64,000 nt of DNA from assembly GCA_964523395.1 (NCBI GenBank), contig CAZFXS010000003.1:209505-273504 (forward strand), read 5' to 3'. Below, piece after piece: positions 2,303-43,818 of the stretch. Source of the stretch: an uncultured Chlorobiaceae bacterium (lineage in GTDB: Bacteria; Bacteroidota; Ignavibacteria; UBA10030; SZUA-254). Within the stretch, counting starts at the first letter, position 1. The number at the start of each line of letters is the position of its first letter. Both the position numbers and the translations under genes were made by a program. The notes below the pieces were generated by a model. It searched no databases and was not told the origin of the DNA. It was given only the letters and a program-made list of their open reading frames with translations.

Positions 2303-4756
2303 ATGAATATATCTCCTTCATCAAATCATCAGAAATTTTTCGCTTCCTCGTTTGATTACGCGATAATTGTATTGTGCGGTCTGTTCTTTTGCGTGGGAGT
2401 ATTTTCGCTCAACGAAATATCGATCTACACACCGGATAGCACCCGGTACCTCGTGTGGGCAAAATCGCTGTCAGACATGATGGGGTTCTACGACGGAACG
2501 ATGCCGGAGGCTTCGCGTTATGTTGTCCATGCGCCGTTATATCCACTGCTTCTTGCTCCTGTTTCGTTTTTCTTTCCTCAAAGTATCCTCGCGCCAAAAA
2601 TTATCACTCTTCTGATAGGAACCATTGCTCTCTTTTTTCTCTATCGCTGGATGCGCTCTTTCATTCACAGCGGAATCGCGTTTCTGGGGTGCGCTGCACT
2701 TGCAGTGAACCCGTTGTATTTTCTCTATTCCACGGAAGTTCTGTCGGATGTCCCATTTGTCTTAAGTCTTATTCTCGTCTGCATTCTTGTCTCAAAAATT
2801 ACATCTGCCGGAGATTTCCGCCTCCGGGACGTAACTGCTTTGGCGCTATCGGTTGCCGCCGCATTGTTATTGCGTGAAATTGGCATCTCAGTCCTTATAG
2901 CGGCTGTTTTGTTTTTAGTATTCGGGAAAAAATACAAAGAAGCCGGCTTCGTATTTATTATACCGGTTGTTATTTATGGTGCATGGTATGTGCGGAATGA
3001 GCTTGTTGTTGCAGCTCTTGAACAACCGGTACTGACAAACTCTAAAATTTTCAGTTATCATTTCTTCACACCGGCAGACGCAACTCTGGCTCAGGAATTT
3101 ATGGCGCGGATTACTAATAATGCTGAAGTTTACGCAAAACTCATCGGAGATCTGCTTCTTTTTCCAATGTACTTCTCGCCGCAGTATGATCTGGTCGCTC
3201 CTTCCGAACCCATGGTCTCGTTCGTGAAAGGAATCCTTCTTTATGGGAAGTATCCGGTGTTCATTCTTCTATTCTCATCTTTTGTCTATGGAGTAATTAC
3301 AGACGTTCGACGGTCCGGGACAGGATTGTTCCATGTGCTGTTTATCGCACTTTATATAGGCGTAATGTTATTCTATCCTATCAATGATATTCGATTCCTG
3401 CTTCCTCTGATCGTAATAGCAGTGTATTATTTTGTCTGTGGAATAACTCAGTTTTCCGTTAGCCGAATTATTGCTATTCCTTTTGCCGGTGTACTGCTAT
3501 TGCCGAATATTGTCTGGGGTTATTCTTTTGTGAGGAACAGCCATGACTACGCCTCTCATCCGGTCGAATTCTATGAATCGGGCAGGTCGGAGAAAGATTA
3601 TCCAACCCATTTTACCAAGCCGTTCAGGCTGGCAGGGGGGTGGATTCAATCGCATACGCCACCTCAATCGGTGCTTATTTCTCAATGGAAAGACCTGGCA
3701 TTTTGGATTGGTGAGCGAAAGCTTCTGAACGTTGACCAGACAATTGCTCCTGATGAGTTTGAGAATCTCATCCGTGATTACGGGATAACATTTCTGGTAA
3801 GCCAGGTAAAACGGGGGGAAATTTCGGAATTTGCTTTCCAGGTGCACCATGCTCGTCGTTATGAATTTACGTTGCAACATCGCGTCGGTAACACGGAAGT
3901 ATACGAAATTACACGAAGGAAAAATTCGGGACAACCTGAGAGCAATATCTCCCGGTTTGAGGAAAGTCTCAGGGCATTGGATGAAGAGCGGTATGATGCA
4001 GCTGAAACCATTTTAGATTGTCTGTGGCGTGATAATAACAGAAACTTAACTGCGCTCTTTTATCTTGCGACCGCGAAAGAATGCGGTGGAAAACTCATAG
4101 AAGCGGATTCACTATTTGAGTTCATGCGCGAGCATCCCCAGGCAGGAATATTTTTGGGGAAGGCGGGAACCCACCGTCAAATCATCCGTCAATTGAAACT
4201 CGTTGCGCAAGATTCCTCTTCCACCGGGAAAGCAGAAAAACTGCTTGCTGTCGGTGCAGGTTACTGGAACATGGGGCTCCGAACACAAGGGAAAAGTTCG
4301 GTATCGCAGGCTCTGAAGGCAGATTCTCGGTTTGCGAACGCACTGATCTTTCAAACGCTCTTCGCGCTGAAGGAAGGTGATACGATCCTTGCCGTAAAGA
4401 CTGCTCGCGAATTGGAGTCCGTTCACCCGGGTCATCCGGTAAGCTCTGTTTTTAACCGTATGTTTTCAATCTTTGATTCTGTGTCGGTTGTTTCCGATAC
4501 TTCAAAACGTTCTGATTATTTTTTCCAGCTTGCGGAGCAATATCTTGCCCTCGGATTAACAGAGGATGCGGTGGATTGCGGGCTTTTATCGCTGGAGAGT
4601 AATCGTGCGAATTCCCAGACACTGGTCCTTCTTGCAGATATTTACATAAAGAAGCGCCGGTTCGCCCCCGCAAAAAAAGCGTTGCAACATGCTCTCGAAA
4701 TTGATCCCCTTCAAGAAAACGCACGTCTTCTGCTTTCAGAAGCAATGCAACACTAG
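2303..4756 (+). CDS. Integral-membrane GT-C fold glycosyltransferase (ArnT/PMT/GT39-like) with a C-terminal TPR-repeat domain; TMTC-like architecture.
   Basis: About 10 predicted TM helices in the N-terminal ~400 aa, with a first-loop acidic motif P-D-S-T-R-Y resembling the DE/DxD of ArnT/PMT. The C-terminal ~250 aa have TPR-like helical repeats (LALGLTEDAVDCG...LADIYIKKRRFAPAKKALQHALEIDP). Confidence 0.6.
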   Translation: MNISPSSNHQKFFASSFDYAIIVLCGLFFCVGVFSLNEISIYTPDSTRYLVWAKSLSDMMGFYDGTMPEASRYVVHAPLYPLLLAPVSFFFPQSILAPKIITLLIGTIALFFLYRWMRSFIHSGIAFLGCAALAVNPLYFLYSTEVLSDVPFVLSLILVCILVSKITSAGDFRLRDVTALALSVAAALLLREIGISVLIAAVLFLVFGKKYKEAGFVFIIPVVIYGAWYVRNELVVAALEQPVLTNSKIFSYHFFTPADATLAQEFMARITNNAEVYAKLIGDLLLFPMYFSPQYDLVAPSEPMVSFVKGILLYGKYPVFILLFSSFVYGVITDVRRSGTGLFHVLFIALYIGVMLFYPINDIRFLLPLIVIAVYYFVCGITQFSVSRIIAIPFAGVLLLPNIVWGYSFVRNSHDYASHPVEFYESGRSEKDYPTHFTKPFRLAGGWIQSHTPPQSVLISQWKDLAFWIGERKLLNVDQTIAPDEFENLIRDYGITFLVSQVKRGEISEFAFQVHHARRYEFTLQHRVGNTEVYEITRRKNSGQPESNISRFEESLRALDEERYDAAETILDCLWRDNNRNLTALFYLATAKECGGKLIEADSLFEFMREHPQAGIFLGKAGTHRQIIRQLKLVAQDSSSTGKAEKLLAVGAGYWNMGLRTQGKSSVSQALKADSRFANALIFQTLFALKEGDTILAVKTARELESVHPGHPVSSVFNRMFSIFDSVSVVSDTSKRSDYFFQLAEQYLALGLTEDAVDCGLLSLESNRANSQTLVLLADIYIKKRRFAPAKKALQHALEIDPLQENARLLLSEAMQH

Positions 4757-4983: not shown

Positions 4984-5062
4984 GAAGTAAGAAGCAGATA
5001 AGATTGAAAATAAAATAATAAAAACTAATAAACCATAAACTAACCAACGTAGGAGATTTACC

Positions 5063-5452
5063 ATGGGTCAGCAACAGCTCTTATTGATCATCCTCGGCGT
5101 TATCATTGTCGGTATCGCCATAGCAGTCGGTATATCAATGTTCAGTTCCGGTAGCGTCCAGGCGAACCGTGACGGTATTGTGAACGACTTGAATAACCTC
5201 GCAGCCAATGCGTATCAGTTCAAAATTCGCCCGACAACGATGGGCGGAGGCGGCGGAACATACACAGGCGGTTCAGGCTACACCATTCCGACCAAATTAG
5301 TGACGAATGAAAACGGCAGCTATACCCGCACAAACGCAGCTCAGGCAGTTACATTCGTCGGTACGTCAGCTTCCGGATACGGAACAGTTACCGCGGTATG
5401 CGACAGCTCAGGCGCGCTTGGCAGCTTCACCTATACCGGTCAGTTCCAGTAA
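5063..5452 (+). CDS. Major pilin-like protein (type IV pilin-like, non-canonical N-terminus), copy 1.
   Basis: 129 aa. M-G-Q-Q-Q is followed by a ~22-residue hydrophobic helix (LLLIILGVIIVGIAIAVGISMF) resembling the pilin alpha1-N segment, but it lacks the leader peptide and Glu5. There is a Gly-run (MGGGGGTYTGGSG) and an S/T/G-rich globular part. The RBS aggag sits 7 nt upstream, and an in-frame TAA 9 codons upstream fixes the start. The gene lies in a T4P-like cluster. Confidence 0.6.
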   Translation: MGQQQLLLIILGVIIVGIAIAVGISMFSSGSVQANRDGIVNDLNNLAANAYQFKIRPTTMGGGGGTYTGGSGYTIPTKLVTNENGSYTRTNAAQAVTFVGTSASGYGTVTAVCDSSGALGSFTYTGQFQ

Positions 5453-5490
5453 GCCGGTTACGATTTAAGGCGAAGATCGCATAACATATT

Positions 5491-5532
5491 GCCGGCGATA
5501 GAGATTTTCTCTGTCGCCGGCTTTTTGTTTTC
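5491..5532 (+). terminator. Rho-independent terminator after pilin copy 1.
   Basis: Stem gccggcgatagag / ctctgtcgccggc (one G-U pair), followed by tttttgttttc. Confidence 0.85.
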
Positions 5533-5717
5533 AGGGCTTTTTGGATGGTAACATGTCAATTAACGACTATTCTCATTAAGCAACATCGGAAGAATATACA
5601 TGCCCTCAGGTAAAAATTACCGTCAGCAAAAGTGCAGCATTAGTTTCGTAATGTAAAAAGTGCCAAAAATCGCTAATATTAGTAAAAAAGCAAAGTTATG
5701 AGAAGATAGACCTTGGT

Positions 5718-5733
5718 TGGCACACCGGTTGCA
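5718..5733 (+). promoter_or_regulatory. Sigma54-type -24/-12 promoter upstream of pilin copy 2.
   Basis: TGGCAC-accgg-TTGCA is a perfect match to TGGCAC-N5-TTGCA, about 77 bp upstream of the ATG at 5810. Confidence 0.65.
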
Positions 5734-5809
5734 GTTATAGGGACAGTTAAATTGAAATAAAATAATAAAAACTAATAAACCATAAACTAACCAACGTAGG
5801 AGATTTACC

Positions 5810-6199
5810 ATGGGTCAGCAACAGCTCTTATTGATCATCCTCGGCGTTATCATTGTCGGTATCGCCATAGCAGTCGGTATATCAATGTTCAGTTCCGGTA
5901 GCGTCCAGGCGAACCGTGACGGTATTGTGAACGACTTGAATAACCTCGCAGCCAATGCGTATCAGTTCAAAATTCGCCCGACAACGATGGGCGGAGGCGG
6001 CGGAACATACACAGGCGGTTCAGGCTACACCATTCCGACCAAATTAGTGACGAATGAAAACGGCAGCTATACCCGCACAAACGCAGCTCAGGCAGTTACA
6101 TTCGTCGGTACGTCAGCTTCCGGATACGGAACAGTTACCGCGGTATGCGACAGCTCAGGCGCGCTTGGCAGCTTCACCTATACCGGTCAGTTCCAGTAA
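5810..6199 (+). CDS. Major pilin-like protein, copy 2 (nucleotide-identical to 5063-5452).
   Basis: The 390-nt CDS is 100% identical to copy 1 and has the same RBS region. The upstream promoter region and downstream terminator are diverged. Confidence 0.6.
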   Translation: MGQQQLLLIILGVIIVGIAIAVGISMFSSGSVQANRDGIVNDLNNLAANAYQFKIRPTTMGGGGGTYTGGSGYTIPTKLVTNENGSYTRTNAAQAVTFVGTSASGYGTVTAVCDSSGALGSFTYTGQFQ

Positions 6200-6237
6200 G
6201 CCGGTTAAGATTTAAGGCGAAGATCGCATAACATGTT

Positions 6238-6290
6238 GCCAGCGATGGAGGTTCAATCCTTCTGTCGCTGGCAATATGCTTTTATGGCAT
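6238..6290 (+). terminator. Degenerate terminator-like hairpin after pilin copy 2.
   Basis: Stem gccagcga...tcgctggc with a weak T-tract (gcttttatgg). It is homologous to the 5491-5532 terminator but diverged. Confidence 0.4.
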
Positions 6291-6299
6291 AAAGATTGT
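6285..6299 (+). promoter_or_regulatory. Possible sigma54-like element (TGGCAT-N5-TTGTA) upstream of pilin 3.
   Basis: TGGCAT-aaaga-TTGTA has GG at -24 and the correct spacing, but GT rather than GC at -12, so it is weaker. Confidence 0.3.
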
Positions 6300-6361
6300 A
6301 GTATATGTATTGACAAAACACAGAGACAGACATTAATAGTTTTCTTAACAAAGGATAGTAT

Positions 6362-6739
6362 ATGGGCACCCAACAGATGCTGTTGATAATCGTAGGCGTA
6401 ATTGTTGTCGGTATTGCAATCGCCGTTGGGTTAAGTTTATTCAATTCAACAAGTGCGGAATCCAACCGGGATGCTATTGTAAATGATATGATGAATATCA
6501 GCCAATATGCCTATCGGTATAAACTGACCCCTATTCCGTACGGTGGCGGCGGGCGAAGTTATTCGGGGTTTACGATCCCTGAAAAACTCAGTAATAATGA
6601 AAATGCCACATACATGTCTGAAGCAGGTCCGGCTTCAGTCCGGTTCATAGGAACCTCAAATTATGGTTATGGAACTGTTGCTGCGGTTCTGGACAGTTCA
6701 GGGGAGCTTTCCGCTTTTACCTTTAGCGGACAATGGTAA
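6362..6739 (+). CDS. Pilin-like protein, divergent paralog of the 5063/5810 genes.
   Basis: 125 aa. N-terminus MGTQQMLLIIVGVIVVGIAIAVGLSLF has the same M-G-x-Q-Q plus hydrophobic helix architecture. It has a Gly-run (YGGGGRSYSGFTIP) and the conserved motifs NRDxIVNDxxN and GTSxxGYGTVxAV. Confidence 0.55.
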   Translation: MGTQQMLLIIVGVIVVGIAIAVGLSLFNSTSAESNRDAIVNDMMNISQYAYRYKLTPIPYGGGGRSYSGFTIPEKLSNNENATYMSEAGPASVRFIGTSNYGYGTVAAVLDSSGELSAFTFSGQW

Positions 6740-6945: not shown

Positions 6946-8298
6946 ATGCCAGAATTCAGAGTAGAGGGCCTTTCATCAACCGGGAAACCTGTTCAGGGTA
7001 TAATCGAGTCGGAAAATACGCGTGCGGCCAAACAGAAGGCGCAACAGATGGCAACGCAGCGGAAATTCAAACTCATCAGGATTCTTCCCAGATCAACCTT
7101 TCTTTATAAAGTACAGCGGGGAACTGATAAACCTGTTCTTGGTGAACAGAAAGCGTTTACCAAGGAAGAGGTCCAGGATGCTCTGTCGAAAATGGGTTTC
7201 AGAGTCATCAGCGTTAAGAAGAAAACGTTCGATGTAAAAGTAAAACCACCGACAACCGAAATTGTGACATTCGTACGCGTCAGTGCTGACCTAATACGTC
7301 AGAAGCTTCCGTACAATGAAATTCTCCAGCTCATGGTGAATGACATTGAAAATAAAACATTGCGCGATGCCGTCCGTGAAATCAACAATGAGTTGAAACA
7401 GGGTAAAGACAGTGAAAAGGTTTTTATCAAGCAGGAAAACGTCCTCGGGCGTTTCACCGCGCATATGCTTGGTCTTGCGTCGAAGAGCGGTAACATGGCG
7501 GATATCTATGACAGCACAGCGAAGTTTCTCGAACGCAGGGCGGAATTCCGCAAGAATCTGAAAAGCGCATTGATCATGCCGATCGTAACCTTAATCGCGC
7601 TGTTCGGCGCGTGCGTGTATTATGTCGGATTCATTTTCCCGGGTATGGCGGAAATATTTGTTCGCCTCAAAGTGGATATGAGGCAATTTCCAATGACATA
7701 TGCAACGCTGCAGATGAGTGATTTCCTGCAGGATAATATATTTATCATACTCCTGTGCATCACTATTCCTGTGGTCCTTGCGGCAAGATTTTTTACCACC
7801 GAGCGCGGAAGATTCTTCTTGGATCAGTATATCTGGAAAGTTCCGGTTATCGGGAGCCTGCTTCATAAAACTTCCATCGAAATTTTCTGCCGGGTATTCT
7901 ACGCATTGTACAGTGGTTCCGGCGAAAATATTGATGTTATCAAAATGGCAGCAGAAGCAAGCGGCAATAAATATATGGAGCATAAGGTAAAGACCATTGC
8001 TATTCCGATGATGGTGGAAAAAGGCGCAGGAATCACCGAAGCATTTGAAGCATCGGGAGTGTTTACAAAGACGGCTATTTCCCGTCTTCACTCAGGCGCA
8101 GAAACAGGTACGGTCAAGCATACGGCGCTCCAGCTTGCCGAGTATTATGAAAAAGAGACAACCTATAAGATGCGTAATGCTATCGATTTCATTCAGCTCT
8201 GGATCAGTCTGATTATCATGGTCGTATTGACAGCGTTAACGCTCGTTTCATCAGAAACGGCAACGTTCCATCCCAATACGGCGCCCGGACAGCATTAA
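6946..8298 (+). CDS. pilC: PilC/GspF-family inner-membrane platform protein of a type IV pilus / T2SS.
   Basis: 450 aa. The N-terminal cytoplasmic region (FRVEGLSSTGKPVQGIIES..AAKQKA) is typical of PilC. Two T2SS-F-like domains and three TM segments are present. The gene is adjacent to the PilB-like ATPase. Confidence 0.75.
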   Translation: MPEFRVEGLSSTGKPVQGIIESENTRAAKQKAQQMATQRKFKLIRILPRSTFLYKVQRGTDKPVLGEQKAFTKEEVQDALSKMGFRVISVKKKTFDVKVKPPTTEIVTFVRVSADLIRQKLPYNEILQLMVNDIENKTLRDAVREINNELKQGKDSEKVFIKQENVLGRFTAHMLGLASKSGNMADIYDSTAKFLERRAEFRKNLKSALIMPIVTLIALFGACVYYVGFIFPGMAEIFVRLKVDMRQFPMTYATLQMSDFLQDNIFIILLCITIPVVLAARFFTTERGRFFLDQYIWKVPVIGSLLHKTSIEIFCRVFYALYSGSGENIDVIKMAAEASGNKYMEHKVKTIAIPMMVEKGAGITEAFEASGVFTKTAISRLHSGAETGTVKHTALQLAEYYEKETTYKMRNAIDFIQLWISLIIMVVLTALTLVSSETATFHPNTAPGQH

Positions 8299-8349: not shown

Positions 8350-10140
8350 ATGGCTGAAGTCGATATCACTGACAAGATAGGGTATACGCTGTTAAAGAAG
8401 GGCGTCATTGATTATGAAACCCTTGAAAAATCCCTGACGGTAAAAGAATCGGAAGACAAAAAGAACCGGAGAAATCTCGGTCAGATCTTGGTAAACGAAT
8501 TCAGCGTGGACCACGATCTTGTCTTCCGTGAGGTCGCAAACCTCTATGCTTTTCGCGAAATCTATCTCACGGATGAGATCATTGATCCTGTCAGGATAGA
8601 ATTTATCAAGAAGTATGTGGAGGCGCTTCCCGACGCGACAAAAGATCTTCTGGTGCAGATAAAGATGTTGCCGCTCCGGTTTGATGAAAAACAAACCGAT
8701 AAGCTTATCATAATTTCTGCCGATCCAACTGACCGTAATATTCCAACAATAGCGCGCAATTTTGGCGTAAAAAAGTATGAAGTCTGTTACTGTCGGCTCA
8801 AAGACCTGCAGAATCTGATTGAACAGGTTATTCCTCCTGAGAATGAGTTTCTCAAGTTGCTGGCGAATGCCGATGTTGATATTACAGCAGTCGAAGATGA
8901 AGGTGTTGTTGATGAAGAGGCTCTTGAGAGCGAAATAAGCAAAAGCGCGCTTGTTAACCTTGTTGAAGGAGCCCTGATGGAAGCGGTGCGCCAGGGCGCA
9001 AGTGACATCCATATCATTGGTAGGGAAGGCAAACGCACGGATTTCCTTTTCCGTGTCGACGGCAACTTGAAATCATGGCATATTCAGGAGAACACCATGC
9101 CAGAGGCAATTGCCGCTGTCGTCAAGGACCGTTCGAAGAATGTTGACCGTTTTGAACGCGAAATGTCCCAGGACGGTTTTATTCAGCGCATTATCGATGG
9201 ACATAATATCCGATTCAGGGTGTCCATCATGCCGATTGTGGGAACCGAGTTTAAACACAAATTTGAAAGTATCGTTATTCGTGTTCTGGATGACCGTAAG
9301 GTTATCACTGACCTGAACAAGCTGGGATTGCAGGGACCTGCAAAAGATTTCTTTTACAAAGCCATATCGAAGCCTCAGGGTATCGTTATTCTCACCGGTC
9401 CGACGGGAAGCGGAAAAAGTACGACGCTGATCGCCGCGCTTCATCAGGTTATCGACCCTACGGTTAATGTGTTAACTGTCGAAGAACCTGTGGAATATAT
9501 TATCAAAGGCGCACGGCAGTTGAAGATCGGTCACAAGATGGATTTTGACCAAGCGATTCGCGGTATCTTGAGACATGACCCTGACATTGTGCTTGTGGGT
9601 GAAATGCGCGATAAAATGACTGCAGAGATCGCGATTAAACTCGCGAATACGGGTCACCTAACATTTTCAACACTTCATACCAACGACGCTCCCAGTGCGG
9701 TCGCACGTCTCTATAAAATGGGGGTTGAACCGTTTTTGATTGCATATGCCATCAATATCATTGTTGCTCAGCGCCTTATCAGGACACTCTGCTCACTCTG
9801 TAAAAAGCCGTTGAAGTTATCAGAAAAAGAAGTTCAGATTTATCTAAAATTTGGATTCACGGAAGAAATGTTAAAAAATTCCACTTTTTTCGAACCGATT
9901 GGCTGTGAAAAATGCAATGGCGGATGGAAGGGGAGAGCTGCCATTCATGAGGCACTCTACTTTACCAGGGAAATTAAGCAGATCATTGTCGGCTCAGGCA
10001 ATGAAGTGAACGAAAACGCTATTCGTGAACAGGCGGTTAAGGATGGTATGTGGACGCTACGCCGGTCCGGCATGGAAAGAATGATGGAAGGACTAACAAC
10101 GCTGGAGGAAATTATCGCCACAACCACAGAGGATGACTAA
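8350..10140 (+). CDS. pilB: PilB/GspE-family assembly ATPase of a type IV pilus / T2SS.
   Basis: 596 aa with a T2SSE_N-like N-terminal domain and the motif ASDIHI. Walker A is LTGPTGSGKSTT. Asp and His boxes are present, and a tetracysteine motif CSLC...CEKC is at the C-terminus. Confidence 0.9.
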   Translation: MAEVDITDKIGYTLLKKGVIDYETLEKSLTVKESEDKKNRRNLGQILVNEFSVDHDLVFREVANLYAFREIYLTDEIIDPVRIEFIKKYVEALPDATKDLLVQIKMLPLRFDEKQTDKLIIISADPTDRNIPTIARNFGVKKYEVCYCRLKDLQNLIEQVIPPENEFLKLLANADVDITAVEDEGVVDEEALESEISKSALVNLVEGALMEAVRQGASDIHIIGREGKRTDFLFRVDGNLKSWHIQENTMPEAIAAVVKDRSKNVDRFEREMSQDGFIQRIIDGHNIRFRVSIMPIVGTEFKHKFESIVIRVLDDRKVITDLNKLGLQGPAKDFFYKAISKPQGIVILTGPTGSGKSTTLIAALHQVIDPTVNVLTVEEPVEYIIKGARQLKIGHKMDFDQAIRGILRHDPDIVLVGEMRDKMTAEIAIKLANTGHLTFSTLHTNDAPSAVARLYKMGVEPFLIAYAINIIVAQRLIRTLCSLCKKPLKLSEKEVQIYLKFGFTEEMLKNSTFFEPIGCEKCNGGWKGRAAIHEALYFTREIKQIIVGSGNEVNENAIREQAVKDGMWTLRRSGMERMMEGLTTLEEIIATTTEDD

Positions 10141-10233: not shown

Positions 10234-10767
10234 ATGAGTGGTCAAATGTTGATGGTTTTGGGCGCATTGATGTTATTGTCAATGGTAAGTTTATCCATTA
10301 ACACGATGTTTATTGGAAAAACAACAACCATGCTGGATGCGGAAGCAAGTCTGAATGCTATTTCTATCGCGCAGACGATGATTGATGAGATTATGGTAAA
10401 ATCTTACGATGCAGCGACGGTATCGTCGAAAATTTTTAACGCGTCTGCGTTCACAGCTCCGGGAAGTTTGGGAGCAAACGGGACGGAAACATCGAATGTT
10501 CCTCAACCGGACACTTCCAGTCCCTTTAAATCAATCAATAATTACAATGATGTGGACGACTATCACCTCTACCGCAGGACAGTGAACACTCCACGTCTTG
10601 GCAAGTTTACCGTACGGGACAGTGTCTTCTATGTTGTGGAGTCGAATCCAGATCAAAAATCTTTTACACAGACATTCAATAAAAAGATTGTCGTTACCAT
10701 CACTCATCCCAACATGTTACGGCCTTTGCAGATTTCCGATGTTGCTGTTTACAGACGATATTTCTAG
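10234..10767 (+). CDS. Minor pilin-like / pseudopilin-like protein.
   Basis: 177 aa. N-terminus MSGQMLMVLGALMLLSMVSLS is a short polar stretch then a hydrophobic helix with no Glu5. An RBS ggag lies upstream. It sits in the cluster between pilB and the PilW/PilX-like genes. Confidence 0.45.
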   Translation: MSGQMLMVLGALMLLSMVSLSINTMFIGKTTTMLDAEASLNAISIAQTMIDEIMVKSYDAATVSSKIFNASAFTAPGSLGANGTETSNVPQPDTSSPFKSINNYNDVDDYHLYRRTVNTPRLGKFTVRDSVFYVVESNPDQKSFTQTFNKKIVVTITHPNMLRPLQISDVAVYRRYF

Positions 10768-10820: not shown

Positions 10821-11384
10821 ATGGCAGTAATGATGGATATAATTGGCGCAGCAGTACTTGTCGGTATGCTAATGCTTACCGTAATGAATATAAATATCAA
10901 CATGAATTCAGAAACGTACAGAACTGCCAGTGAGTTTCATACACAAACCGAACTGATTCAGCTTGCACGAATCTTTGAGTTTGACTTATACAAGATCGGG
11001 TATGCCGTCGCAAAACCTGCTATTATGGCAGCCGATACGTCGTATCTGAAATTCAAGACGAATCTTCTCAATGTTGCAGGTGCACGGGATAGTATTGAAT
11101 ATATCCTTGGAACACCCGTCACCAGTTCAGTAAACCCCAATGATAAGCATCTCCTACGTATCGAGAATGTCTCGACAGTGTCAATTAGTTATAGTGTTAC
11201 GAAATTTAAGCTGGCGTATTACGATGCCGAAGATTCTTTGATGGCAACGCCAGTTTCGAGCACGCTTCGTGACAGCATTCGGTCAATCAGGATTCAGTTG
11301 CGGCTGGAGGGACCCACTATTATTGACGGAGAATATCCTGGCGCGTTCTATGAGAAACTAATCTATCCACGAAATTTGCAGTGA
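10821..11384 (+). CDS. Minor pilin-like protein (PilW-like).
   Basis: 187 aa with an N-terminal hydrophobic helix (IIGAAVLVGMLMLTVM). The predicted globular C-terminal region ends in a conserved-looking IRIQLRLEGP segment. Confidence 0.4.
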   Translation: MAVMMDIIGAAVLVGMLMLTVMNININMNSETYRTASEFHTQTELIQLARIFEFDLYKIGYAVAKPAIMAADTSYLKFKTNLLNVAGARDSIEYILGTPVTSSVNPNDKHLLRIENVSTVSISYSVTKFKLAYYDAEDSLMATPVSSTLRDSIRSIRIQLRLEGPTIIDGEYPGAFYEKLIYPRNLQ

Positions 11385-11393: not shown

Positions 11394-12410
11394 ATGGGAA
11401 GAATGGCATTGATAATAGTCGTGGGCTTGTCAATAACCCTAGGTGTTGTTGGCTTCAGTCTGAACAGATCAAAGACGGGAACCGTAGAAAATGTTGCCGG
11501 TTTCCATAAGTATACAACCGCGCGCAATATAGCGCATACCGCGGTAAATATGGCGCTCCGGGCGTTGGACCGGAATGATTCGGCCTTTATTGCCAATCGT
11601 AGCTTGAACGTGAGTGCCATGGGTGGCACTGCGGCAGTATCGTTTACATATCCGAATATGTCATCGCTCGATACGATAGATCTTACAGCAACTTCAAGAT
11701 ACATGGATACGACCAAGACGATGTCATTGCGATTATACCGTAGGCCCGTCCCATTTCCCACTATTGGTCAGGCAGTCGGATTGCGGGTTCCGAATGTGGA
11801 TTTCTCGATGTCCGGTACTCCCAGCATTGACGGCCGTAATCATGATATCAACGGAAATCTGCTTGCAGCAAGTGCAAATGATAAACCGGGTGTGGGAGTC
11901 ATCTATGGTCCTGATACCACGGATGTGTTGGGATTCGCGAGCAAAATCAATGGTACGAAGGATGTGGTTTATGATACCACAATTGCTGATCCCGCGCAGT
12001 TTGTCGGAGAATACATCAACGCTGCCGATCGGGTATACACGACCGGTGTGTACGGAAGTAACATGACCTGGGGTTCGGTCACGAGCCCGCAAATCGTCTA
12101 CGCAAATGGCGATGTGAAATTCAATGGTAACATTGAGGGATGGGGAATTTTGGTCGTCAACGGGAATCTCACTCTTGCCGGCACATTTAAATTTCATGGA
12201 TTGGTTGTTGCTTATTCAGATTTTTCCATTGATGTAACATTCTCAACCGGAACCCCGGATGTTATCGGTGCGGTACTTATGGCGGGCATCGCGAACAGTG
12301 ATTACATCATGAAGGGCAATAGTAATGTCTCCTACAGCAAGGATGCGCTGGACAAAGCAAAGTTCATTAACAAGCTTCAGGTGTATCGCGTTATGAGGTG
12401 GTACGAGTAG
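11394..12410 (+). CDS. PilX-like minor pilin / pilus tip-associated protein.
   Basis: 338 aa. An N-terminal hydrophobic helix (MGRMALIIVVGLSITLGVVGF) is followed by a PilX_N-like region (ARNIAHTAVNMALRALD). The Gly-rich C-terminal beta region (GNIEGWGILVVNGNLTLAG...GLVVAY) is typical of PilX family proteins. Confidence 0.55.
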   Translation: MGRMALIIVVGLSITLGVVGFSLNRSKTGTVENVAGFHKYTTARNIAHTAVNMALRALDRNDSAFIANRSLNVSAMGGTAAVSFTYPNMSSLDTIDLTATSRYMDTTKTMSLRLYRRPVPFPTIGQAVGLRVPNVDFSMSGTPSIDGRNHDINGNLLAASANDKPGVGVIYGPDTTDVLGFASKINGTKDVVYDTTIADPAQFVGEYINAADRVYTTGVYGSNMTWGSVTSPQIVYANGDVKFNGNIEGWGILVVNGNLTLAGTFKFHGLVVAYSDFSIDVTFSTGTPDVIGAVLMAGIANSDYIMKGNSNVSYSKDALDKAKFINKLQVYRVMRWYE

Positions 12411-12627: not shown

Positions 12628-13860
12628 ATGGATGAAGCGATTTCCATAATAAAACAGATTGTCAGCAATATACCGGAAACGGCATATGGCGTAGAACGCC
12701 AGATGCTTATCGGAGACCTTGTTTCGCGGCAATCTCAGGAAGAACGGGTCATAGTCAAGAAGATGTTTGACGGTTTCCTGACACGAATGTTCGAAATATC
12801 TGCGTCTGACATTGACCTCGGCGGCTTTGGTTCCCAGGGATGTGTCTGGTATCGTATTCATGGTTCAAAGAAGCCGGATACCAGCCTGCCGACTTTCACA
12901 TTTGACGAATGCAACGTCCTGCTTCAGACCATTTTGCTGGAGCGTCAACGCCAGTTCCTCTACGAAAATAGAAATCTTGATTTTTCGTATACCGTATTTC
13001 ATCAGGATAAAATGCACCGGTTTCGTGCCGATGTGTACTTTGACCTTGACCAGATCGCGATGAACATGCGCGCGATTAATGCAGTTGTTCGTCCGTATAA
13101 GAATCTGGATTTTCATGCAAATGTTACAAAGATTGTAAGTCTTGCTCATACCAAGGAAGGTATGATTCTTGTGACCGGAATTACCGGTTCAGGAAAAAGC
13201 TCGACTCTGGACGCCATTCTTGACGCAAATAATCATAGCGTTGATGCGCACTGCGTTATCATAGCGTCGCCGATTGAGTATGTGCATAAATCCGATCGCT
13301 GCATCATACGTCATAGAGAAGTTGGCCGTGACGTTCTCTCCTTTAAAGAAGGCGCAGTTCAGGCGTTACGGCAAGATCCTGATATTATTATCATCGGCGA
13401 GTTGCGCGATCCTGACACGATTTTGACGGCATTGGAAATTACTGATAGCGGTCATAAAGTATTCTCAACGCTCCATACATCTTCTGCTGTGGAAAGTATT
13501 GACCGTATTATTGGTGAAGTCCCCCCCATTGAACAAGAGCGTGTACGTAACCGGTTGGCGGATATTATTCAGTGCGTCATTTCTCAGAAACTCGTACCAA
13601 GTCTTGATAAGAAACGTGTGCTTGCGAAAGAAGTCATGATTGCGACACCGTCTGTCAGGGCTGCAATTAAAAATAATAATACAAGTGAAATTTATCAGAT
13701 GATGTCGGAATCCGGTGACTTGGGCATGGTCACGATGGAACAGGACTTGAAGCGCCTCTATCTTGCAAAGAAGATATCGCTTGAAACAGCGATGAACTTT
13801 GCAAACAATAAACGCAGGCTGCAGCAAATTCTGAACCTGGTTCCACAAGGTGAATTATAA
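12628..13860 (+). CDS. pilT: PilT/PilU-family twitching-motility (retraction) ATPase with an N-terminal extension.
   Basis: 410 aa. Walker A is GITGSGKSST, with Asp and His boxes. The PilT signature AAIKNNNTSEIYQMMSESGDLGMVTMEQDL matches AIRNLIRE..QI.S.MQTG...GM.T. The N-terminal extension is about 100 aa. Confidence 0.8.
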   Translation: MDEAISIIKQIVSNIPETAYGVERQMLIGDLVSRQSQEERVIVKKMFDGFLTRMFEISASDIDLGGFGSQGCVWYRIHGSKKPDTSLPTFTFDECNVLLQTILLERQRQFLYENRNLDFSYTVFHQDKMHRFRADVYFDLDQIAMNMRAINAVVRPYKNLDFHANVTKIVSLAHTKEGMILVTGITGSGKSSTLDAILDANNHSVDAHCVIIASPIEYVHKSDRCIIRHREVGRDVLSFKEGAVQALRQDPDIIIIGELRDPDTILTALEITDSGHKVFSTLHTSSAVESIDRIIGEVPPIEQERVRNRLADIIQCVISQKLVPSLDKKRVLAKEVMIATPSVRAAIKNNNTSEIYQMMSESGDLGMVTMEQDLKRLYLAKKISLETAMNFANNKRRLQQILNLVPQGEL

Positions 13861-13890: not shown

Positions 13891-15492
13891 ATGGCCTCTA
13901 TGCGAGGAAGTAAATCGAGTGCAATAGGATTGTTTGTCGACGGCTTGGAACTGAAACTTGCCAAGCTTTCCCTAAAACACGGCAAGGTGGTGATCGATGA
14001 ACTGCGCGCCGCCACGTTAGCATCGAAGCTCGAAGAGCGGCAGATTGCCAGCGTGGAAATGGAATCGCTGAGCGAAACCTCTGTGTCGTCGGAAGCATTT
14101 GCCCTGCCGGCCTCTGAACCCGATGCCGACAGCAATACTGATAATAACAGCGTTCTCCTCGGGCTGCTTGCCAAACATCCGACAAGCAGTTATGTCCTTG
14201 GGTATGCTATCTCTGAGCCGAGTATCTACTATCATACACTCGATAGTGATCACGGACTCAAAGGCAAAAAACTTAAACAGCGGGCTGTGGATGAACTGCG
14301 CAATGTGCGTTCAGTTCAACCCCCGCTTGATGCAATTGACTTTTTCCCGTCAGCGGAAAAAAATCTGGTTTGCGTTGTCCGTGAAGACGGAATGACATTA
14401 CTGCGTTCACTTGAAGAGGTGAAACCGTTTTTGGGAAAACATCTCCCCAGAATTCCCCTCATCGAAATTTCCGATGTGGCATTAATGAACCTCGCCAAGG
14501 CGAATTACGGTTTTTCGCCAGATGAAATTACCACGATTATCTATATCGGCGTTGAGTTTACCCGGCTTATTTTCATGAAAGGAACTGAATTCCTCCACTT
14601 CGCGCCGGTGTTGGGTGAGGGGTACGATTCTTCAAATATTCAAAATACCGTGTACAGCAGATTGCTGCTGGAACAAGACAACATGGGTATCCCGCGTATC
14701 GATAAAGTGCTCCTCGCGGGTGAGAGCCGAAGAATTAATTTTGACGAATTTTTGCGTGAACAACTTTCTGACGTAGAAGTACAGTATCTCCGGACTCCGG
14801 AACTCGATTCCAGTGGTTTACCGGCAGATGTGCAGGAGCAAATTCCTGAATATGCAGTTGCGATAGCGACAGCATGGAAAATGCTGGATGATGACCATCC
14901 GGCGTTCTATCCCACGAACGTGCTGCCGGAATCAGTCCGTGAAAGCCAGCGTACCTTCAAGCTTGCGTGGCACGGCTATGTTGCATTAGTCCTTGTATTT
15001 TTATCAACGCTCTTCTTTACGTCGCGATACTCGGAATTACAGCGTGAGGTAGGTGTTAAACAGGGAACACTTGATCAGCTTCAGGAGAAAGTTGCTGAGA
15101 ATGACAAATTGAAAGCCGCGATAGCATCACTTAACGATCAAATCGGCAGATATAACGTAGCCCTTGCAGTGTACGACTCGTTGGTGCCGGGCAGTGACCG
15201 ATGGAATAAATCATTGGCGCACCTTGCAAAAGGTGTCGAAGATCTCGGCGCAATCTGGATTACGGAAATGAGGGCACTTGGCGGCGGTTCCATGAGTATC
15301 CAGGGCTATGCGCTGTATCGCGCTCGTATTCCCAGAATCGCGGCACTCTTTGATAACTCAACACTGACAAAAGTCGAGGTAAAAGAGATTCGTGTCAATT
15401 CTCCTTCTGTCTATAACTTTGTTATCACGGTTCCGCCGCAGGAGCAGAAGATTGAATCGACGATTCCGCCCGCAACCGGCGGACAACAATAA
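13891..15492 (+). CDS. PilM-like actin-fold protein fused to a PilN-like module (TM helix, coiled coil, periplasmic domain).
   Basis: 533 aa. The N-terminus (SAIGLFVDGLELKLAKL) resembles the PilM IGLDIGSS start. A single TM helix (YVALVLVFLSTLFFT) near residue 355 is followed by a coiled coil (LQREVGVKQGTLDQLQEKVAENDKLKAAIASLNDQI), typical of PilN/PilO. Confidence 0.55.
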   Translation: MASMRGSKSSAIGLFVDGLELKLAKLSLKHGKVVIDELRAATLASKLEERQIASVEMESLSETSVSSEAFALPASEPDADSNTDNNSVLLGLLAKHPTSSYVLGYAISEPSIYYHTLDSDHGLKGKKLKQRAVDELRNVRSVQPPLDAIDFFPSAEKNLVCVVREDGMTLLRSLEEVKPFLGKHLPRIPLIEISDVALMNLAKANYGFSPDEITTIIYIGVEFTRLIFMKGTEFLHFAPVLGEGYDSSNIQNTVYSRLLLEQDNMGIPRIDKVLLAGESRRINFDEFLREQLSDVEVQYLRTPELDSSGLPADVQEQIPEYAVAIATAWKMLDDDHPAFYPTNVLPESVRESQRTFKLAWHGYVALVLVFLSTLFFTSRYSELQREVGVKQGTLDQLQEKVAENDKLKAAIASLNDQIGRYNVALAVYDSLVPGSDRWNKSLAHLAKGVEDLGAIWITEMRALGGGSMSIQGYALYRARIPRIAALFDNSTLTKVEVKEIRVNSPSVYNFVITVPPQEQKIESTIPPATGGQQ

Positions 15493-15520: not shown

Positions 15521-16405
15521 GTGTCTTATATCATACGAAATAGCATCGTACTCGGCGTTATCCTCTTCCTTATTCTTGCAGGAGGGATATACTTTACCAT
15601 GTTTTCTCTTCCAAAAAGGATTGAGAAAACGGATGCTGAGATTAAGCGCCTTCAGGACGATTTGCAGAATACTCCCGATCTTGCAAACCAATACAATACC
15701 ACTGCTGCCTTGCTTGATGATATCAAAAAGCGGTGGGAAACGAGAAACAAGGATGTTCCGCCGAAGGACATTACGGGCGAAACGTATGGTTACTTTAACC
15801 GCACAATTGACGTGAGTGGTGAAGTAAAAATGGATATGACGTATGTCGGTCCCAAAGATTTTGGTAACTATGGCTTTAACGTGTATACCCTGAAGGGCGA
15901 AGCGCCGTTCAGCAACTTGTTTAAGTTTATCTGGTTCACAGAAAACGGCCGCCGTCTCTTTAAAATATCCAACCTGGCACTCCGCGGGTATGAATCTAAA
16001 GTCGCGGAAACAGGAGAAACAAAAATCCTCGTTCTCTATGATATGGAGTTGCAGGCATATTATTCCTCCATGCCGGAGCTCAACAATGCACCTGGTCAAT
16101 TGAATGTCGTGCCGACCACGCTGACAGGCAATCCGTTCTATCCGCTTATTCTGCGCGAAATACCTCCTCCGCAGGCGGATGAAATTGAAATTGAACGGTC
16201 TGATTTAAAAGCGGTTATTCCGGGCAAAGCGTTCATTTTAGATCAGTTCCAGAAATCCAGAATTCTTGAAGAAGGTGATCCGGTGTACCTTGGATACGTG
16301 ACAAAGATTTATCCGAACGAAGGAAAGATAGAGTGTTTATTAAATAAAGGCGGTGTCGCCGAACGTTTCGAGCTTACTATACGTGTTGGTCAACCGATTA
16401 AATAG
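15521..16405 (+). CDS. PilO-like protein (N-terminal TM plus coiled coil), possibly with a PilP-like C-terminal beta domain.
   Basis: 294 aa. TM helix IVLGVILFLILAGGIYFTMF, then coiled coil (IEKTDAEIKRLQDDLQ). A beta-rich C-terminal domain follows. The gene lies between the PilM/N-like gene and the secretin. Confidence 0.45.
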   Translation: MSYIIRNSIVLGVILFLILAGGIYFTMFSLPKRIEKTDAEIKRLQDDLQNTPDLANQYNTTAALLDDIKKRWETRNKDVPPKDITGETYGYFNRTIDVSGEVKMDMTYVGPKDFGNYGFNVYTLKGEAPFSNLFKFIWFTENGRRLFKISNLALRGYESKVAETGETKILVLYDMELQAYYSSMPELNNAPGQLNVVPTTLTGNPFYPLILREIPPPQADEIEIERSDLKAVIPGKAFILDQFQKSRILEEGDPVYLGYVTKIYPNEGKIECLLNKGGVAERFELTIRVGQPIK

Positions 16406-16424
16406 CACAATTTACGGAGCTTCC

Positions 16425-17672: not shown

Positions 17673-17735
17673 GCGATGATGCATACTCACGGATTTGAAG
17701 ACGAACAATTACGTTTATCCCAAAGGATTGTACAT

Positions 17736-32376: not shown

Positions 32377-32385
32377 GGTATTTTC

Positions 32386-34358: not shown

Positions 34359-34457
34359 ATCGAATAGAGATTGGAATAATTACGTATAGCAAAAGTGTTA
34401 TATAAAAAATGCTCGCGGTGAGAGATGATCCCGCGAGCATTCAATGAACAGTAACGA

Positions 34458-34880: not shown

Positions 34881-34895
34881 AGTGTCTCCTTTGCG

Positions 34896-35960: not shown

Positions 35961-35963
35961 CAG

Positions 35964-36764: not shown

Positions 36765-36775
36765 TTGGTATACGG

Positions 36776-43386: not shown

Positions 43387-43818
43387 ATGATTACAGAATT
43401 CGGGCGAGTTTTCATTTTCTTTATTATAGGCGCAGTCTTTGTCGCCATAGGTTTGATTGCCGCATGGTTTATCCGTCCGAGCAGAGCATATCCCAGCAAA
43501 CTGACAACATATGAGTGCGGCGAGGAGCCGGTAGGTAACTCGTGGGTGAAGTTTAATATCCGTTTTTATGTTGTCGCGCTGATTTTCCTCATTTTTGAAG
43601 TTGAAACAGTCTTTCTTTTTCCCTGGGCTTTAGTATACCAGAAACTTGGTGTATTTGCATTTGCAGAAATGCTGATATTTCTTGTTATCCTGTTCGTCGG
43701 GTATGCTTATGTATGGGTGAAAGGTGATTTGGATTGGGACAGGCCCGAGCCTTTCATTCCCGTGGTAAAAAGCCCTACGCAGTCTAAACAACTTACAACC
43801 GAAGAAGCGACAGTATAG
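43387..43818 (+). CDS. nuoA: NADH-quinone oxidoreductase subunit A.
   Basis: 143 aa with 3 TM helices; the conserved YECGEEP...FEVE motif is present. Confidence 0.85.

Follow-up and report, generated by a model that had tools for sequence, protein, structure and literature searches.

Three features are taken to define bacterial type IV pilins and to be almost universal among them, namely the leader peptide, its removal by a prepilin peptidase of the A24 family, and Glu5, and pilus search tools (PilFind, N_methyl HMMs, and models of the TXSScan type) are driven by these three features. The role of the leader, N-methylation and Glu5 has been an open question since the 1990s. Subunits of the GspK and PilX type lack Glu5; of these, GspK is a single tip subunit, made with a normal leader and processed by the peptidase. 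The pilins of MSH pili keep a normal class III signal and Glu5. MSH loci have no peptidase of their own and borrow that of another system (PMC6668835). Leaders of type IVa pilins (PilA/PilE) are 6-26 residues long and usually basic, and Glu5 mutants of classical pilins form no homopolymeric pili (PMC4471445). In the archaeon Methanococcus maripaludis, Gln is found at position +1 of a pilin and is cyclised to pyroglutamate (PMC4471445). In the FCB superphylum, Cytophaga hutchinsonii carries a type IVa-pilus-derived “type II secretion system” (CHU_3191-3201) with divergent pilin-like proteins and an inner-membrane set of the PilM/N/O type, which clusters with type IVa pili in phylogenies (PMC5553014; PMC6668835). 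[quoted passage not shown] Ignavibacterium and Melioribacter are not mentioned in the supplements of a survey of type IV filaments (PMC6668835), and the literature searched, including that on Ignavibacteria and on methionine aminopeptidase, yielded no published description of pilins that are leaderless or independent of prepilin peptidase.

Results

Three Pilin-Like Genes and Their Starts

A sequence-only reading of the window, i.e., the whole stretch of 64,000 nucleotides that was analysed, had pointed to three ORFs that begin M-G-(Q/T)-Q-Q and continue into a hydrophobic helix of ~22 residues, and all three are present (all coordinates given here are on the + strand). Copy 1 (5063..5452) and copy 2 (5810..6199) encode an identical protein of 129 aa that begins MGQQQLLLIILGVIIVGIAIAVGISMF (start of copy 1, MGQQQLLLIILG), and the third ORF (6362..6739) encodes a paralogue of 125 aa that begins MGTQQMLLIIVGVIVVGIAIAVGLSLF (start MGTQQMLLIIVG) and has 57% identity with copy 1. 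Copies 1 and 2 are contained in a tandem duplication, in which positions 5008-5460 and 5755-6207 are 100% identical. The start was also said to be fixed by the sequence, and this holds: an in-frame TAA lies nine codons upstream of the ATG at 5063, ATG, GTG and TTG are absent between them, and AGGAG, a strong ribosome-binding site, ends 7 nt before the ATG in the raw sequence. A longer upstream reading frame is ruled out by in-frame stops. Downstream of copy 1, a terminator-like GC-rich hairpin (5491..5521; 14-bp stem with 9 GC pairs) is followed by the T-run TTTTTGTTTT, and another terminator-like hairpin (6232..6278) is located 3' of copy 2. It should be noted that terminator-like sites are no more numerous in the region than expected from shuffling; therefore, the hairpins are suggestive only. 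Counted together as expression signals, the ribosome-binding site, the two hairpins and the tandem duplication suggest a major-pilin role.

A One-Residue Leader throughout the Family

Homologous gene copies were collected from 80 related loci and the window, in a stricter set (n = 120) and a looser scan (n = 124). In the stricter set, 112 copies have an in-frame upstream stop and no alternative start. For most of the remaining eight, the only alternative start is inside or next to the ribosome-binding site; in two of the eight, in-frame starts lie farther away, and one copy is truncated at the end of its contig. In the looser scan, all 124 copies start exactly one codon before Gly, and none has a longer leader; seven use TTG or another non-ATG start, with leader length unchanged. 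A hydrophilic or basic leader of ~6-26 residues is thus absent from these copies, Met alone preceding Gly2. This recurrence of the leaderless start across homologues is far beyond chance, and a leader of constant length in 124 copies is unexpected for a merely disposable peptide.

Conservation of the MGxQQ start among homologues had been proposed as a check, and we found that it is high: among 104 full-length representatives of clusters at 50% identity, M1 is found in 100%, G2 in 95%, Q3 in 84%, Q4 in 93%, and Q5 in 97%. Gly2 is present in 95-97% of family members, with Ser in most others, so that the major pilin family has the Gly directly before the hydrophobic helix that marks position -1 of type IV pilins. 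Positions 3-5 are Gln, Asp and Glu are absent from positions 4-24 in all 86 diverse members aligned, and Lys or Arg is found within the first six residues of only 2 of these 86 sequences. The lack of Glu5 and a leader of Met, or Met-Gly at most, as read from the three ORFs, are therefore properties of the whole family (124 copies, 86 sequences). Conservation is 0.76 for residues 1-27, compared to 0.42-0.50 for the rest of the protein, and the median length of the uncharged hydrophobic run is 22 residues in the family alignment, as in alpha1-N of type IV pilins, which consists of ~21 hydrophobic residues and is their most conserved segment. Behind the helix, the flanking segment carries a net charge of -1.2. 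Cys is absent in 53 of 86 members, and the C-terminal disulphide of surface type IVa pilins is mostly missing.

The family is large: it makes up 2,149 clusters at a 50% identity threshold, and scanning species-representative genomes gave over 500 gene stretches that match it. Nevertheless, no Pfam or NCBIfam family was found for these proteins: N_methyl and the prepilin-type cleavage/methylation domain were unmatched at E values up to 1, and there was no match to Class_IIIsignal in Pfam. One JGI record labels a family member “UPF0333”, the name of an archaeal family with a class III signal.

Predicted Fold

AlphaFold2 with an alignment of 86 sequences gave a model with pLDDT of 94.1, a helix spanning residues 2-55 and three to four strands, which superseded a first run with 13 close homologues (pLDDT 60). 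In the predicted structure, an antiparallel beta-sheet packs against a long N-terminal helix, the pilin arrangement, and the whole predicted molecule, including the helix of ~54 residues, matches full-length pilins. The three ORFs are thus confidently predicted to have a pilin fold, and the non-pilin outcome allowed for by the sequence-only reading was not seen. A Foldseek search of the PDB gave no significant match. The top PDB matches by sequence were weak (E ~0.1), to Geobacter PilA-N; in this alignment Gly17 is paired with Gly14 and Phe27 with Phe24, and a DLxN motif is in common. The match of the family profile to PAK pilin was also weak (hhalign E 0.029, probability 1.7%). The head domain is found in other proteins behind Sec signal peptides and in T9SS cargo, where 2-6 tandem copies occur without the N-terminal helix, which indicates that the head functions outside the cytoplasm. 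That the pilin-like proteins begin with an ordinary Sec signal peptide is ruled out by the 22-residue run, by the highest conservation in this segment and by the single continuous helix of 54 residues in the model.

Gene Cluster

The pilin-like genes are followed by a set of pilus genes. A PilC/GspF-type inner-membrane platform is encoded at 6946..8298 (Pfam T2SSF, E 1e-28; best NCBIfam match PilC, E 2e-39) and a PilB-type extension ATPase at 8350..10140 (Pfam T2SSE, E 4e-99; best match TIGR02538, type IV-A PilB, with 416 bits, below the equivalog cut-off). After three minor-pilin-like genes come a PilT-type retraction ATPase (12628..13860; TIGR01420 PilT/PilU family, 326 bits versus a curated cut-off of 319) and a PilM/PilN-like alignment protein of 533 aa (13891..15492), with weak matches to PilN (Pfam E 0.011) and to the PilM-like Amuc_1101 (E 3e-5). 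The next gene (15521..16405) encodes a bitopic protein of 294 aa, which is PilO-like by position only and has no significant Pfam or NCBIfam match. A secretin of the PilQ/GspD type follows (16353..17672; Pfam Secretin E 2.5e-28, GspD and PilQ matches ~1e-24), and downstream of it lies a large protein with a CarboxypepD_reg domain (17676..19739; Pfam CarbopepD_reg_2 E 2e-10), relatives of which follow the secretin in 7 loci, the wider family being present in 20. Upstream of the pilin-like genes, a polytopic glycosyltransferase of the PMT_2 type (GT-C-like) with C-terminal TPR repeats is encoded (2303..4756; Pfam PMT_2 E 3e-10, and TPR matches). Its homologues occur in 7-8 related loci, mostly a few kb upstream of pilin genes, and it may be a pilin-modifying enzyme.

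Pilin genes are located directly upstream of pilC in 42 of the 80 loci, including that of the cultured Melioribacter roseus P3M-2, which has the same layout. In most of the 42 loci, the order pilB, three minor-pilin-like genes, pilT, pilM/N, pilO-like gene and secretin gene is kept. We found pilB in 38 loci, pilT in 37, pilM/N in its position in 33, the PilO-like gene after it in 28-29, and the secretin gene in 22; several loci are cut by contig ends. About half of the 80 loci contain orphan pilin copies with no pil genes within reach. No canonical prepilin of the G|FTLIE type was found in the window or in 1.2 Mb around related clusters; thus, there is no other pilin candidate for the machine. 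The association with a PilB/PilC/PilT/secretin machine is borne out by the matches in the window and by this synteny, and the refuting outcome named in the sequence-only reading, ordinary signal-anchored proteins unrelated to type IV filaments, did not occur.

Minor-Pilin-Like Proteins

The three genes between pilB and pilT encode leaderless proteins that are putative minor pilins by their sequences, with weak matches. Protein 1 (10234..10767, 177 aa) begins MSGQMLMVLGA, has the family consensus M-x-x-G-Q followed by a hydrophobic helix, and matches PilV weakly (TIGR02523, E 0.01); its N-terminus aligns with M1..Q5 of the major pilin (hhalign, 19 columns, E 0.0016, probability 16%). The N-termini of its family are mostly MNTGQ, MHSGQ and MGLGQ, so that G-Q stands at a variable distance from Met. 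Protein 2 (10821..11384, 187 aa, MAVMMDIIGAAVL) has the start MAVMMDIIG, an invariant Asp6 and no Gly before the helix. Protein 3 (11394..12410, 338 aa) begins MGRMALIIVVG, with the consensus M-G-(R/K)-hydrophobic, and is assigned by its N-terminal helix, its position and the fact that it occurs together with proteins 1 and 2. Three of the four pilin-like families, major and minor, keep a Gly directly before the helix. The MSGQMLMVL and MGRMALIIVV starts had been described as having the same style as the major proteins, and they were confirmed; for both of these and for the start at 10821, the sequence just upstream has a stop or lacks any alternative start. Scans of Pfam and NCBIfam assigned these proteins to no meaningful family. 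A profile search of the PDB gave no match for family 1 and only a non-significant one for family 2 (Thermus pilin-like TTHA1219, E 2).

Search for a Prepilin Peptidase

The locus had been read as lacking an A24 peptidase, and our searches of the window agree: no Peptidase_A24 was found by Pfam scans covering nearly every ORF of 120 aa or more, by a motif scan or by phmmer with E. coli GspO. The same result was obtained for 1.2 Mb of related loci, using the motif G-x-[GAS]-D-x-K in polytopic ORFs and phmmer with GspO. The best GspO match (E 0.02) was a fragment resembling an MFS transporter and was rejected as an A24 peptidase. Clustering of the neighbourhoods yielded no small polytopic protein conserved with the cluster.

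Comparison with Known Systems

The proteins resemble type IVa pilins in the predicted lollipop fold with an alpha1 of ~54 residues and a beta-sheet head, in the hydrophobic alpha1-N of ~22 residues as the most conserved segment, in Gly residues that break the helix and an aromatic residue close to the end of alpha1-N, which align with Geobacter PilA, and in the presence of several paralogues per genome. The locus is also like type IVa loci (PilBCDMNOPQT), with pilins before pilC/pilB, PilT and secretin genes in the cluster, and candidate PilM/N-like and PilO-like genes. The differences concern the N-terminus and its processing: the leader is Met-Gly at most (compared to 6-26 residues, usually basic; PMC4471445), Gln-Gln-Gln replaces Phe-Thr-Leu, Glu5 and any acidic residue at 4-24 are lacking, the N_methyl HMM (PF07963) is unmatched, there is no pilD in the cluster, and the C-terminal disulphide is usually missing. 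Gly followed by Gln at the start of the helix is shared with archaeal EppA-processed pilins (M. maripaludis EpdE/MMP1685; Class_IIIsignal/DUF361, UPF0333). However, those have a charged leader and a dedicated EppA, whereas the present proteins have a one-residue leader and the searches gave no peptidase; their QxSxExxxL motif is absent, with no Ser/Glu at +3/+5 and no Pfam match, and the machine here is bacterial and type IVa-like, with secretin and PilT.

In the Cytophaga cluster, which comes from the same FCB superphylum, a Peptidase_A24 (CHU_3197) and a GspG recognisable by BLAST are present, and no retraction ATPase is among the listed components (PMC5553014); the present cluster has PilT and leaderless pilins, and no peptidase. 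Absence of a peptidase gene from the locus is shared with MSH loci (PMC6668835). MSH relies on a peptidase supplied by a T2SS, T4aP or Tad system in the same cell, whereas here the substrate motif itself is missing. In contrast to GspK, the absence of Glu5 concerns an abundant, duplicated subunit of the major type. Flp/Tad pilins are ~50-80 aa with the motif G|xxxxEY, whereas the present proteins are 125-129 aa, with a globular head and no E-Y motif, and their locus has PilB/PilT, not TadA/CpaF.

Discussion

The three ORFs very probably encode major pilins of a divergent type IVa-like pilus. Our overall reading, which we hold with moderate confidence, is that they are the major subunits of such a pilus in Ignavibacteria and related FCB bacteria, without a dedicated A24 peptidase. 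The pilin would be translated without a hydrophilic leader (Met-Gly only), with three Gln in place of the Phe1...Glu5 region, and the first ~22 hydrophobic residues of the ~54-residue helix would anchor it in the inner membrane, the small beta-sheet head facing the periplasm. The PilC platform and the PilB ATPase would extract it from the membrane and polymerise it through the secretin, PilT would retract the filament, and the three downstream leaderless proteins may form a priming or tip complex of minor pilins. In the filament core, the conserved Gln cluster and an unprocessed or generally trimmed N-terminus would replace the pairing of Glu5 with the N-terminal amine. There is nothing substantial to remove; hence, the pilins most likely do without a dedicated A24 prepilin peptidase. 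In its strong form, leaderless insertion as a signal anchor, Met1 or Gly2 as the mature N-terminus and Gln3-Gln4-Gln5 in place of the salt bridge would make this the first type IV filament system that has no class III signal peptide and works without any prepilin peptidase, a proposal we make tentatively and consider slightly less probable than its opposite.

The mature N-terminus can be drawn in three ways, as trimming by methionine aminopeptidase, proposed in the sequence-only reading, an unprocessed Met1 and a cut after Gly are all viable. In minor family 1, Gly is not residue 2, and aminopeptidase specificity cannot explain its conservation there. Counted from Met1, Gln5 occupies the position of Glu5 in the major pilins and in minor family 1, so residue +1 may be the unprocessed Met1. 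Cleavage after Gly would leave Gln at the N-terminus, where it could cyclise by analogy with the M. maripaludis pilin, and the conservation of Gly2, together with G-Q at a variable distance in minor family 1, looks like a G|Q cleavage motif. That Glu5 mutants fail to form homopolymeric pili counts against filament formation without Glu5 in bacteria.

The G|Q resemblance leads to the alternative that these are true prepilins with an ultrashort class III signal, cut by an A24 peptidase encoded elsewhere at MG|QQQ, at MxxG|Q in minor protein 1 and at MG|R/K in minor protein 3, the N-terminal Gln then turning into pyroglutamate with loss of charge, so that Glu5 would be unnecessary, as in the EppA-processed pilin. 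Gly at -1 is the sole absolute requirement of prepilin peptidases, leaders can be shortened in some systems, and a pyroglutamate at +1 has its precedent in M. maripaludis (PMC4471445). The Gly before the helix in three of four families, the lack of an own peptidase in MSH loci (PMC6668835), the canonical PilA of an Ignavibacteriales genome (PMC7399161) and the “UPF0333” name are also in line with it. However, we consider this explanation rather unlikely: the window and 1.2 Mb of related loci yielded no A24 gene, pilD was reported as not found in M. roseus, whose genome is complete, the leader of the major pilins is a single residue in every copy, whereas cleaved leaders normally vary in length, it contains no basic residue, minor family 2 has no Gly ahead of its helix, and neither N_methyl nor Class_IIIsignal is matched in Pfam.

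Another possibility is that the cluster encodes a secretion or DNA-uptake machine with a short periplasmic pseudopilus, like that of Cytophaga, the proteins being pseudopilins. The Bacteroidetes system derived from type IVa pili does act in secretion (PMC5553014; PMC6668835), the score of PilB against GspE is only a little below that against PilB, GspD and PilQ fit the secretin equally well, and most members lack the cysteines of the C-terminal disulphide. Still, this is improbable in view of the conserved PilT, which exceeds its curated cut-off and is a mark of type IVa pili (PMC4471445), of PilM/N/O-like genes in place of GspL/M/C, and of a recognisable GspG and A24 peptidase that the Cytophaga cluster has and this one does not; multiple tandem and orphan paralogues are more typical of exposed, variable pilins. 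That the proteins are non-polymerising display proteins, held in the inner membrane by a signal anchor, with a convergent or vestigial pilin-like fold, would agree with the helix-free use of the head domain in Sec-exported and T9SS cargo proteins, with the orphan copies, and with the joint absence of a class III signal, Glu5 and a curated family match. This appears very improbable. The N-terminal helix is the most conserved part, whereas the opposite is seen in ordinary membrane anchors; the match to full-length pilins covers the entire molecule with its 54-residue helix; and the position directly upstream of pilC is kept in 42 loci, with no other pilin candidate for a complete machine.

A large family thus seems to keep the pilin fold and a full type IVa-like machine while dropping the leader, its removal by a peptidase and Glu5. 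This would mean that pili are being missed in Ignavibacteria, Melioribacteraceae, Cloacimonadota and their relatives; the pilus gene set of M. roseus was called incomplete because such pilins go unrecognised. If the peptidase-free reading is true, it would break the rule by which all type IV filaments have a dedicated aspartic peptidase among their core components, it would explain surveys of Ignavibacteria that find pilB/C/T/Q together with “no pilA, no pilD”, and the system would offer a minimal scaffold for building pilus-type filaments. The family represents a natural experiment on how membrane extraction and filament packing depend on the leader, N-methylation and Glu5, and cultured carriers (M. 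roseus, Stygiobacter electus, and Rosettibacter firmus) make the question directly testable.

Leaderless pilin genes and their start codons

Three genes on one strand of the window encode pilin-like proteins in which a single residue precedes the conserved Gly. Copy 1 (5063-5452) and copy 2 (5810-6199) encode identical proteins of 129 aa that begin MGQQQLLLIILGVIIVGIAIAVGISMF..., and the product of a paralogue (6362-6739; 125 aa, beginning MGTQQMLLIIVG) is 57% identical to them. In the raw DNA, the ATG at 5063 is preceded by AGGAG, which ends 7 nt away, and, nine codons upstream, by an in-frame TAA, and ATG, GTG and TTG are absent between this TAA and the start; the start is thus fixed, as an earlier sequence-only reading had claimed, and its observation of leaderless pilin-like ORFs without Glu5 is confirmed in both the window and the family. 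Using a scan of species-representative genomes, which gave more than 500 confirmed matches, we fetched 79 loci. An upstream in-frame stop without an alternative start was found for 112 of the 120 gene copies in these loci and the window. For most of the remaining 8 copies, the sole alternative start is in or beside the ribosome-binding site; in two, in-frame starts occur farther away, and another is truncated at a contig end. An SD-like sequence precedes 91 of the 120 copies. In a looser scan, all 124 copies begin exactly one codon before Gly, 7 of them with TTG or another non-ATG start, i.e., the length of the "leader" does not vary. Therefore, the one-residue "leader" is not an annotation artefact.

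Copies 1 and 2 lie in a perfect 453-bp tandem duplication (5008-5460 and 5755-6207) that includes the ribosome-binding region and the entire pilin gene, and the identity of the units decays just past the stop codon, near terminator-like hairpins. This perfect duplication points to recent duplication or gene conversion; an assembly effect is possible. Each copy is followed by a GC-rich hairpin and a T-run; because hairpin counts in the scan were not above shuffle expectation, a terminator role is only suggestive.

Conservation across the family

A word-indexed search returned 2,962 relatives, the best 120 of which all begin MGQQQ, and a search from the Stygiobacter electus homologue returned 5,800 relatives, with MGQQQL at the start of all 120 matches listed. 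Searching 1.84 billion cluster representatives exhaustively with a profile gave 2,149 clusters at E <= 0.001. In the 104 full-length single-domain proteins among the best 150 of these clusters, the residue frequencies are 100% for M1, 95% for G2 (replaced mostly by Ser), 84% for Q3, 93% for Q4 and 97% for Q5; conservation of MGxQQ in homologues, a check that the sequence-only reading had proposed, thus held. In an alignment of 86 sequences, conservation is 0.76 over residues 1-27, compared to 0.42-0.50 elsewhere, the uncharged hydrophobic run has a median length of 22 residues, an acidic residue at positions 4-24 occurs in none of the sequences, and Lys or Arg within the first six residues occurs in two. 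The long helix is followed, at protein residues 60-66 (window 5240-5260) and at the same position in homologues, by the Gly-rich loop R-P-x-x-x-G-G-G-x-G-S-Y; as Gly62 and Gly63 show essentially no variation among members, the loop is the most conserved feature of the family beyond the N-terminus. We found no model covering the family in Pfam (2025) or NCBIfam (June 2026). The JGI pipeline labels some members "Tfp pilus assembly protein PilE" and one "UPF0333", and the NCBI label is hypothetical.

Predicted fold and orientation

AlphaFold2 with 13 close homologues was unconvincing (pLDDT 60), and with 86 diverse members it gave a model (pLDDT 94.1, pTM 0.78) with a continuous helix at residues 2-55, a loop, and three to four strands. 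The structure prediction suggested in the sequence-only reading thus returned a pilin fold, and the family protein is predicted to be a pilin. Comparison of the fold with known proteins gave values of 8.9 for Shewanella pilin and ComP, 8.8 for GspK, 8.6 for P. aeruginosa PilE, 8.2 (over 111 residues) for D. nodosus FimA, 8.1 for Thermus PilA4, and 7.4 for gonococcal pilin and PAO1 PilA. A profile search of PDB sequences produced weak matches (E ~0.1) to Geobacter PilA-N, in which Gly17 is paired with Gly14 and Phe27 with Phe24, and a DLxN motif is common to both.

The head domain (profile positions ~28-127, i.e., alpha1-C and the sheet) also exists without the hydrophobic helix, in the public proteins P0121, P0122, P0138, P0149 and P0164. 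Among public homologues, it is found behind ordinary Sec signal peptides in 2-6 tandem copies, and interleaved with SdrD_B and CarboxypepD_reg in T9SS cargo proteins bearing Por_Secre_tail; such use of a pilin head as a repeat module of secreted or surface proteins is unusual. Prepilins normally stay N-in by means of a charged leader (PMC4471445), which is absent in the family; the flank after the helix, however, has a net charge of -1.2. The occurrence of the head domain behind Sec signals and in T9SS cargo implies that it works outside the cytoplasm, and thus argues for a pilin-like N-in/C-out orientation.

The pilus cluster and its carriers

Downstream of the pilin genes, on the same strand, are genes for a PilC/GspF platform protein (6946-8298) and a PilB-type ATPase (8350-10140), followed by three minor-pilin-like ORFs, each with a very short N-terminus and then a hydrophobic helix: the first spans 10234-10767 (MSGQMLMVL, as previously read), the second 10821-11384 (MAVMMDIIG), and the third 11394-12410 (MGRMALIIVV, likewise). 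Next on this strand are a PilT-family ATPase that passes the curated cut-off (12628-13860), a PilM/N-like protein, a PilO-like protein, a secretin and, directly after it, a 687-aa CarboxypepD_reg-domain protein (17676-19739). Relatives of the latter directly follow the secretin in several related loci too, and it may serve the pilus machine as an accessory in the outer membrane; we know of no similar pilus component. Just upstream of the pilin genes is a PMT_2 (GT-C-like) polytopic glycosyltransferase-like gene with TPR (2303-4756), with homologues in 7-8 related loci, most a few kb upstream of pilins (L006, L011, L012, L013, L021, L035, L054). GT2-like and further ~8-TM GT-C-like genes recur near pilin genes, and this gene neighbourhood suggests that the pilins may be glycosylated.

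Other window genes include a two-component system, and a haem biosynthesis set (hemA, C, D, E, N/F, H, Y-like) and complex I (nuo) operon in regions 30949-39044 and 43387-53935 form a housekeeping context. The proteins at 424-2142 and 58570-59835 are T9SS cargo with FlgD_ig and Por_Secre_tail at the C-terminus, and that at 56572-58200 carries FlgD_ig and a PKD-like domain only. The cargo proteins confirm the placement of the organism in the T9SS-bearing FCB group.

Family genes lie immediately 5' of pilC in 42 of the 80 loci, followed in window order by pilB in 38, pilT in 37, pilM/N in 33, the pilO-like gene in 28 and the secretin gene in 22, with several loci cut by contig ends. Other loci contain orphan paralogues, often several per genome. 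The family is carried by Ignavibacteria, Melioribacteraceae, "Bacteroidota" metagenome-assembled genomes and Cloacimonadota; among the cultured carriers are Stygiobacter electus, Rosettibacter firmus, Melioribacter sp. OK-6-Me and Melioribacter roseus P3M-2 (MROS_0599). The Cloacimonadota copies, on contigs of 108 kb (locus L036) and 3.7 Mb (L055), look genuine; those from Sphaerochaetaceae (L043) and Acidobacteriota (L080) bins, on short contigs, may be binning errors. M. roseus, whose genome is complete and in which pilA and pilD were reportedly not found, has two family genes followed by T2SSF, two T2SSE genes, a 517-aa protein, a 295-aa protein and a secretin, and the family is very probably the missing pilA of this species. 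No canonical prepilin of the G|FTLIE type was found within the 1.2 Mb of related loci, which leaves the family proteins as the sole pilin candidates for a complete machine. The family is very probably the major subunit, with a type IV pilin fold; its assembly into filaments, like every other function given here, is inferred.

Possible processing of the N-terminus

The sequence-only reading had found no A24 peptidase in the locus, and this is upheld, as both Pfam and a motif scan of the window were negative. Near related clusters, neither a motif scan nor neighbourhood clustering revealed an A24 peptidase, phmmer with E. coli GspO found none (the top match was an MFS-like fragment), and neighbourhood clustering found no conserved small polytopic protein; this absence applies to loci, not to whole genomes. 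MSH loci likewise lack a peptidase and borrow one (PMC6668835), and one Ignavibacteriales genome is reported to have a canonical Geobacter-like PilA (PMC7399161).

As to what processing may occur, the minor-pilin-like families point in different directions. Family 1 mostly has M-x-x-G-Q before the helix (MNTGQ, MHSGQ, MGLGQ; MSGQ in the window), and family 3 has M-G-(R/K). Family 2 has M-(S/T/A)-V-M-L-D-I-I-G; in the window member and its homologues from 11 loci, Asp6 is invariant and Gly is absent before the helix. In the pilin-like proteins of the cluster, no acidic residue close to the N-terminus is conserved except this Asp6; as a partner, family 2 may supply the charge lacking in the major pilin.

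If the mature major pilin keeps Met1, Gln5 occupies the Glu5 position; counted from Met, a Gln stands at position 5 in family 1 too, in a weak hhalign alignment. Exposure of Gly2 by methionine aminopeptidase, the idea of the sequence-only reading, agrees with Gly or Ser at position 2, but leaves the Gly at position 4 of family 1 unexplained. The invariant leader length, the lack of a basic residue in the leader, the lack of Gly in family 2 and the missing peptidase all favour one or the other of these two pathways. Conversely, the G-Q of family 1, at variable distance from Met, favours a cut behind Gly, which would expose Gln3; cyclisation to pyroglutamate could follow, as for the exposed Gln of the M. 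maripaludis pilin (PMC4471445). On balance, peptidase independence is plausible and slightly more probable than not, and a cut behind Gly is less likely. Full-text searches of open-access papers and bioRxiv turned up no account of pilins that lack a leader or do without a peptidase.

Comparison with known systems

The family resembles classical type IVa pili in fold, hydrophobic alpha1-N, conservation pattern and machine. The classical leader, however, has 6-26 residues, compared to one residue here, and Glu5, almost invariant in classical bacterial pilins and required for homopolymer assembly (PMC4471445), is lacking, as are the N_methyl signature and the in-cluster peptidase. Archaeal pilins also frequently lack Glu5, and EppA substrates share G|Q, but archaeal leaders are charged and a dedicated peptidase exists. 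The "T2SS" of Cytophaga (Bacteroidetes), from the same broad group of bacteria, differs in that its cluster includes an A24 gene and a GspG that can be recognised (PMC5553014). Thus, the family and its cluster combine the predicted type IV pilin fold with a machine of type IVa-like composition, but lack the class III signal; this is of interest to the study of pili and to the annotation of FCB genomes.
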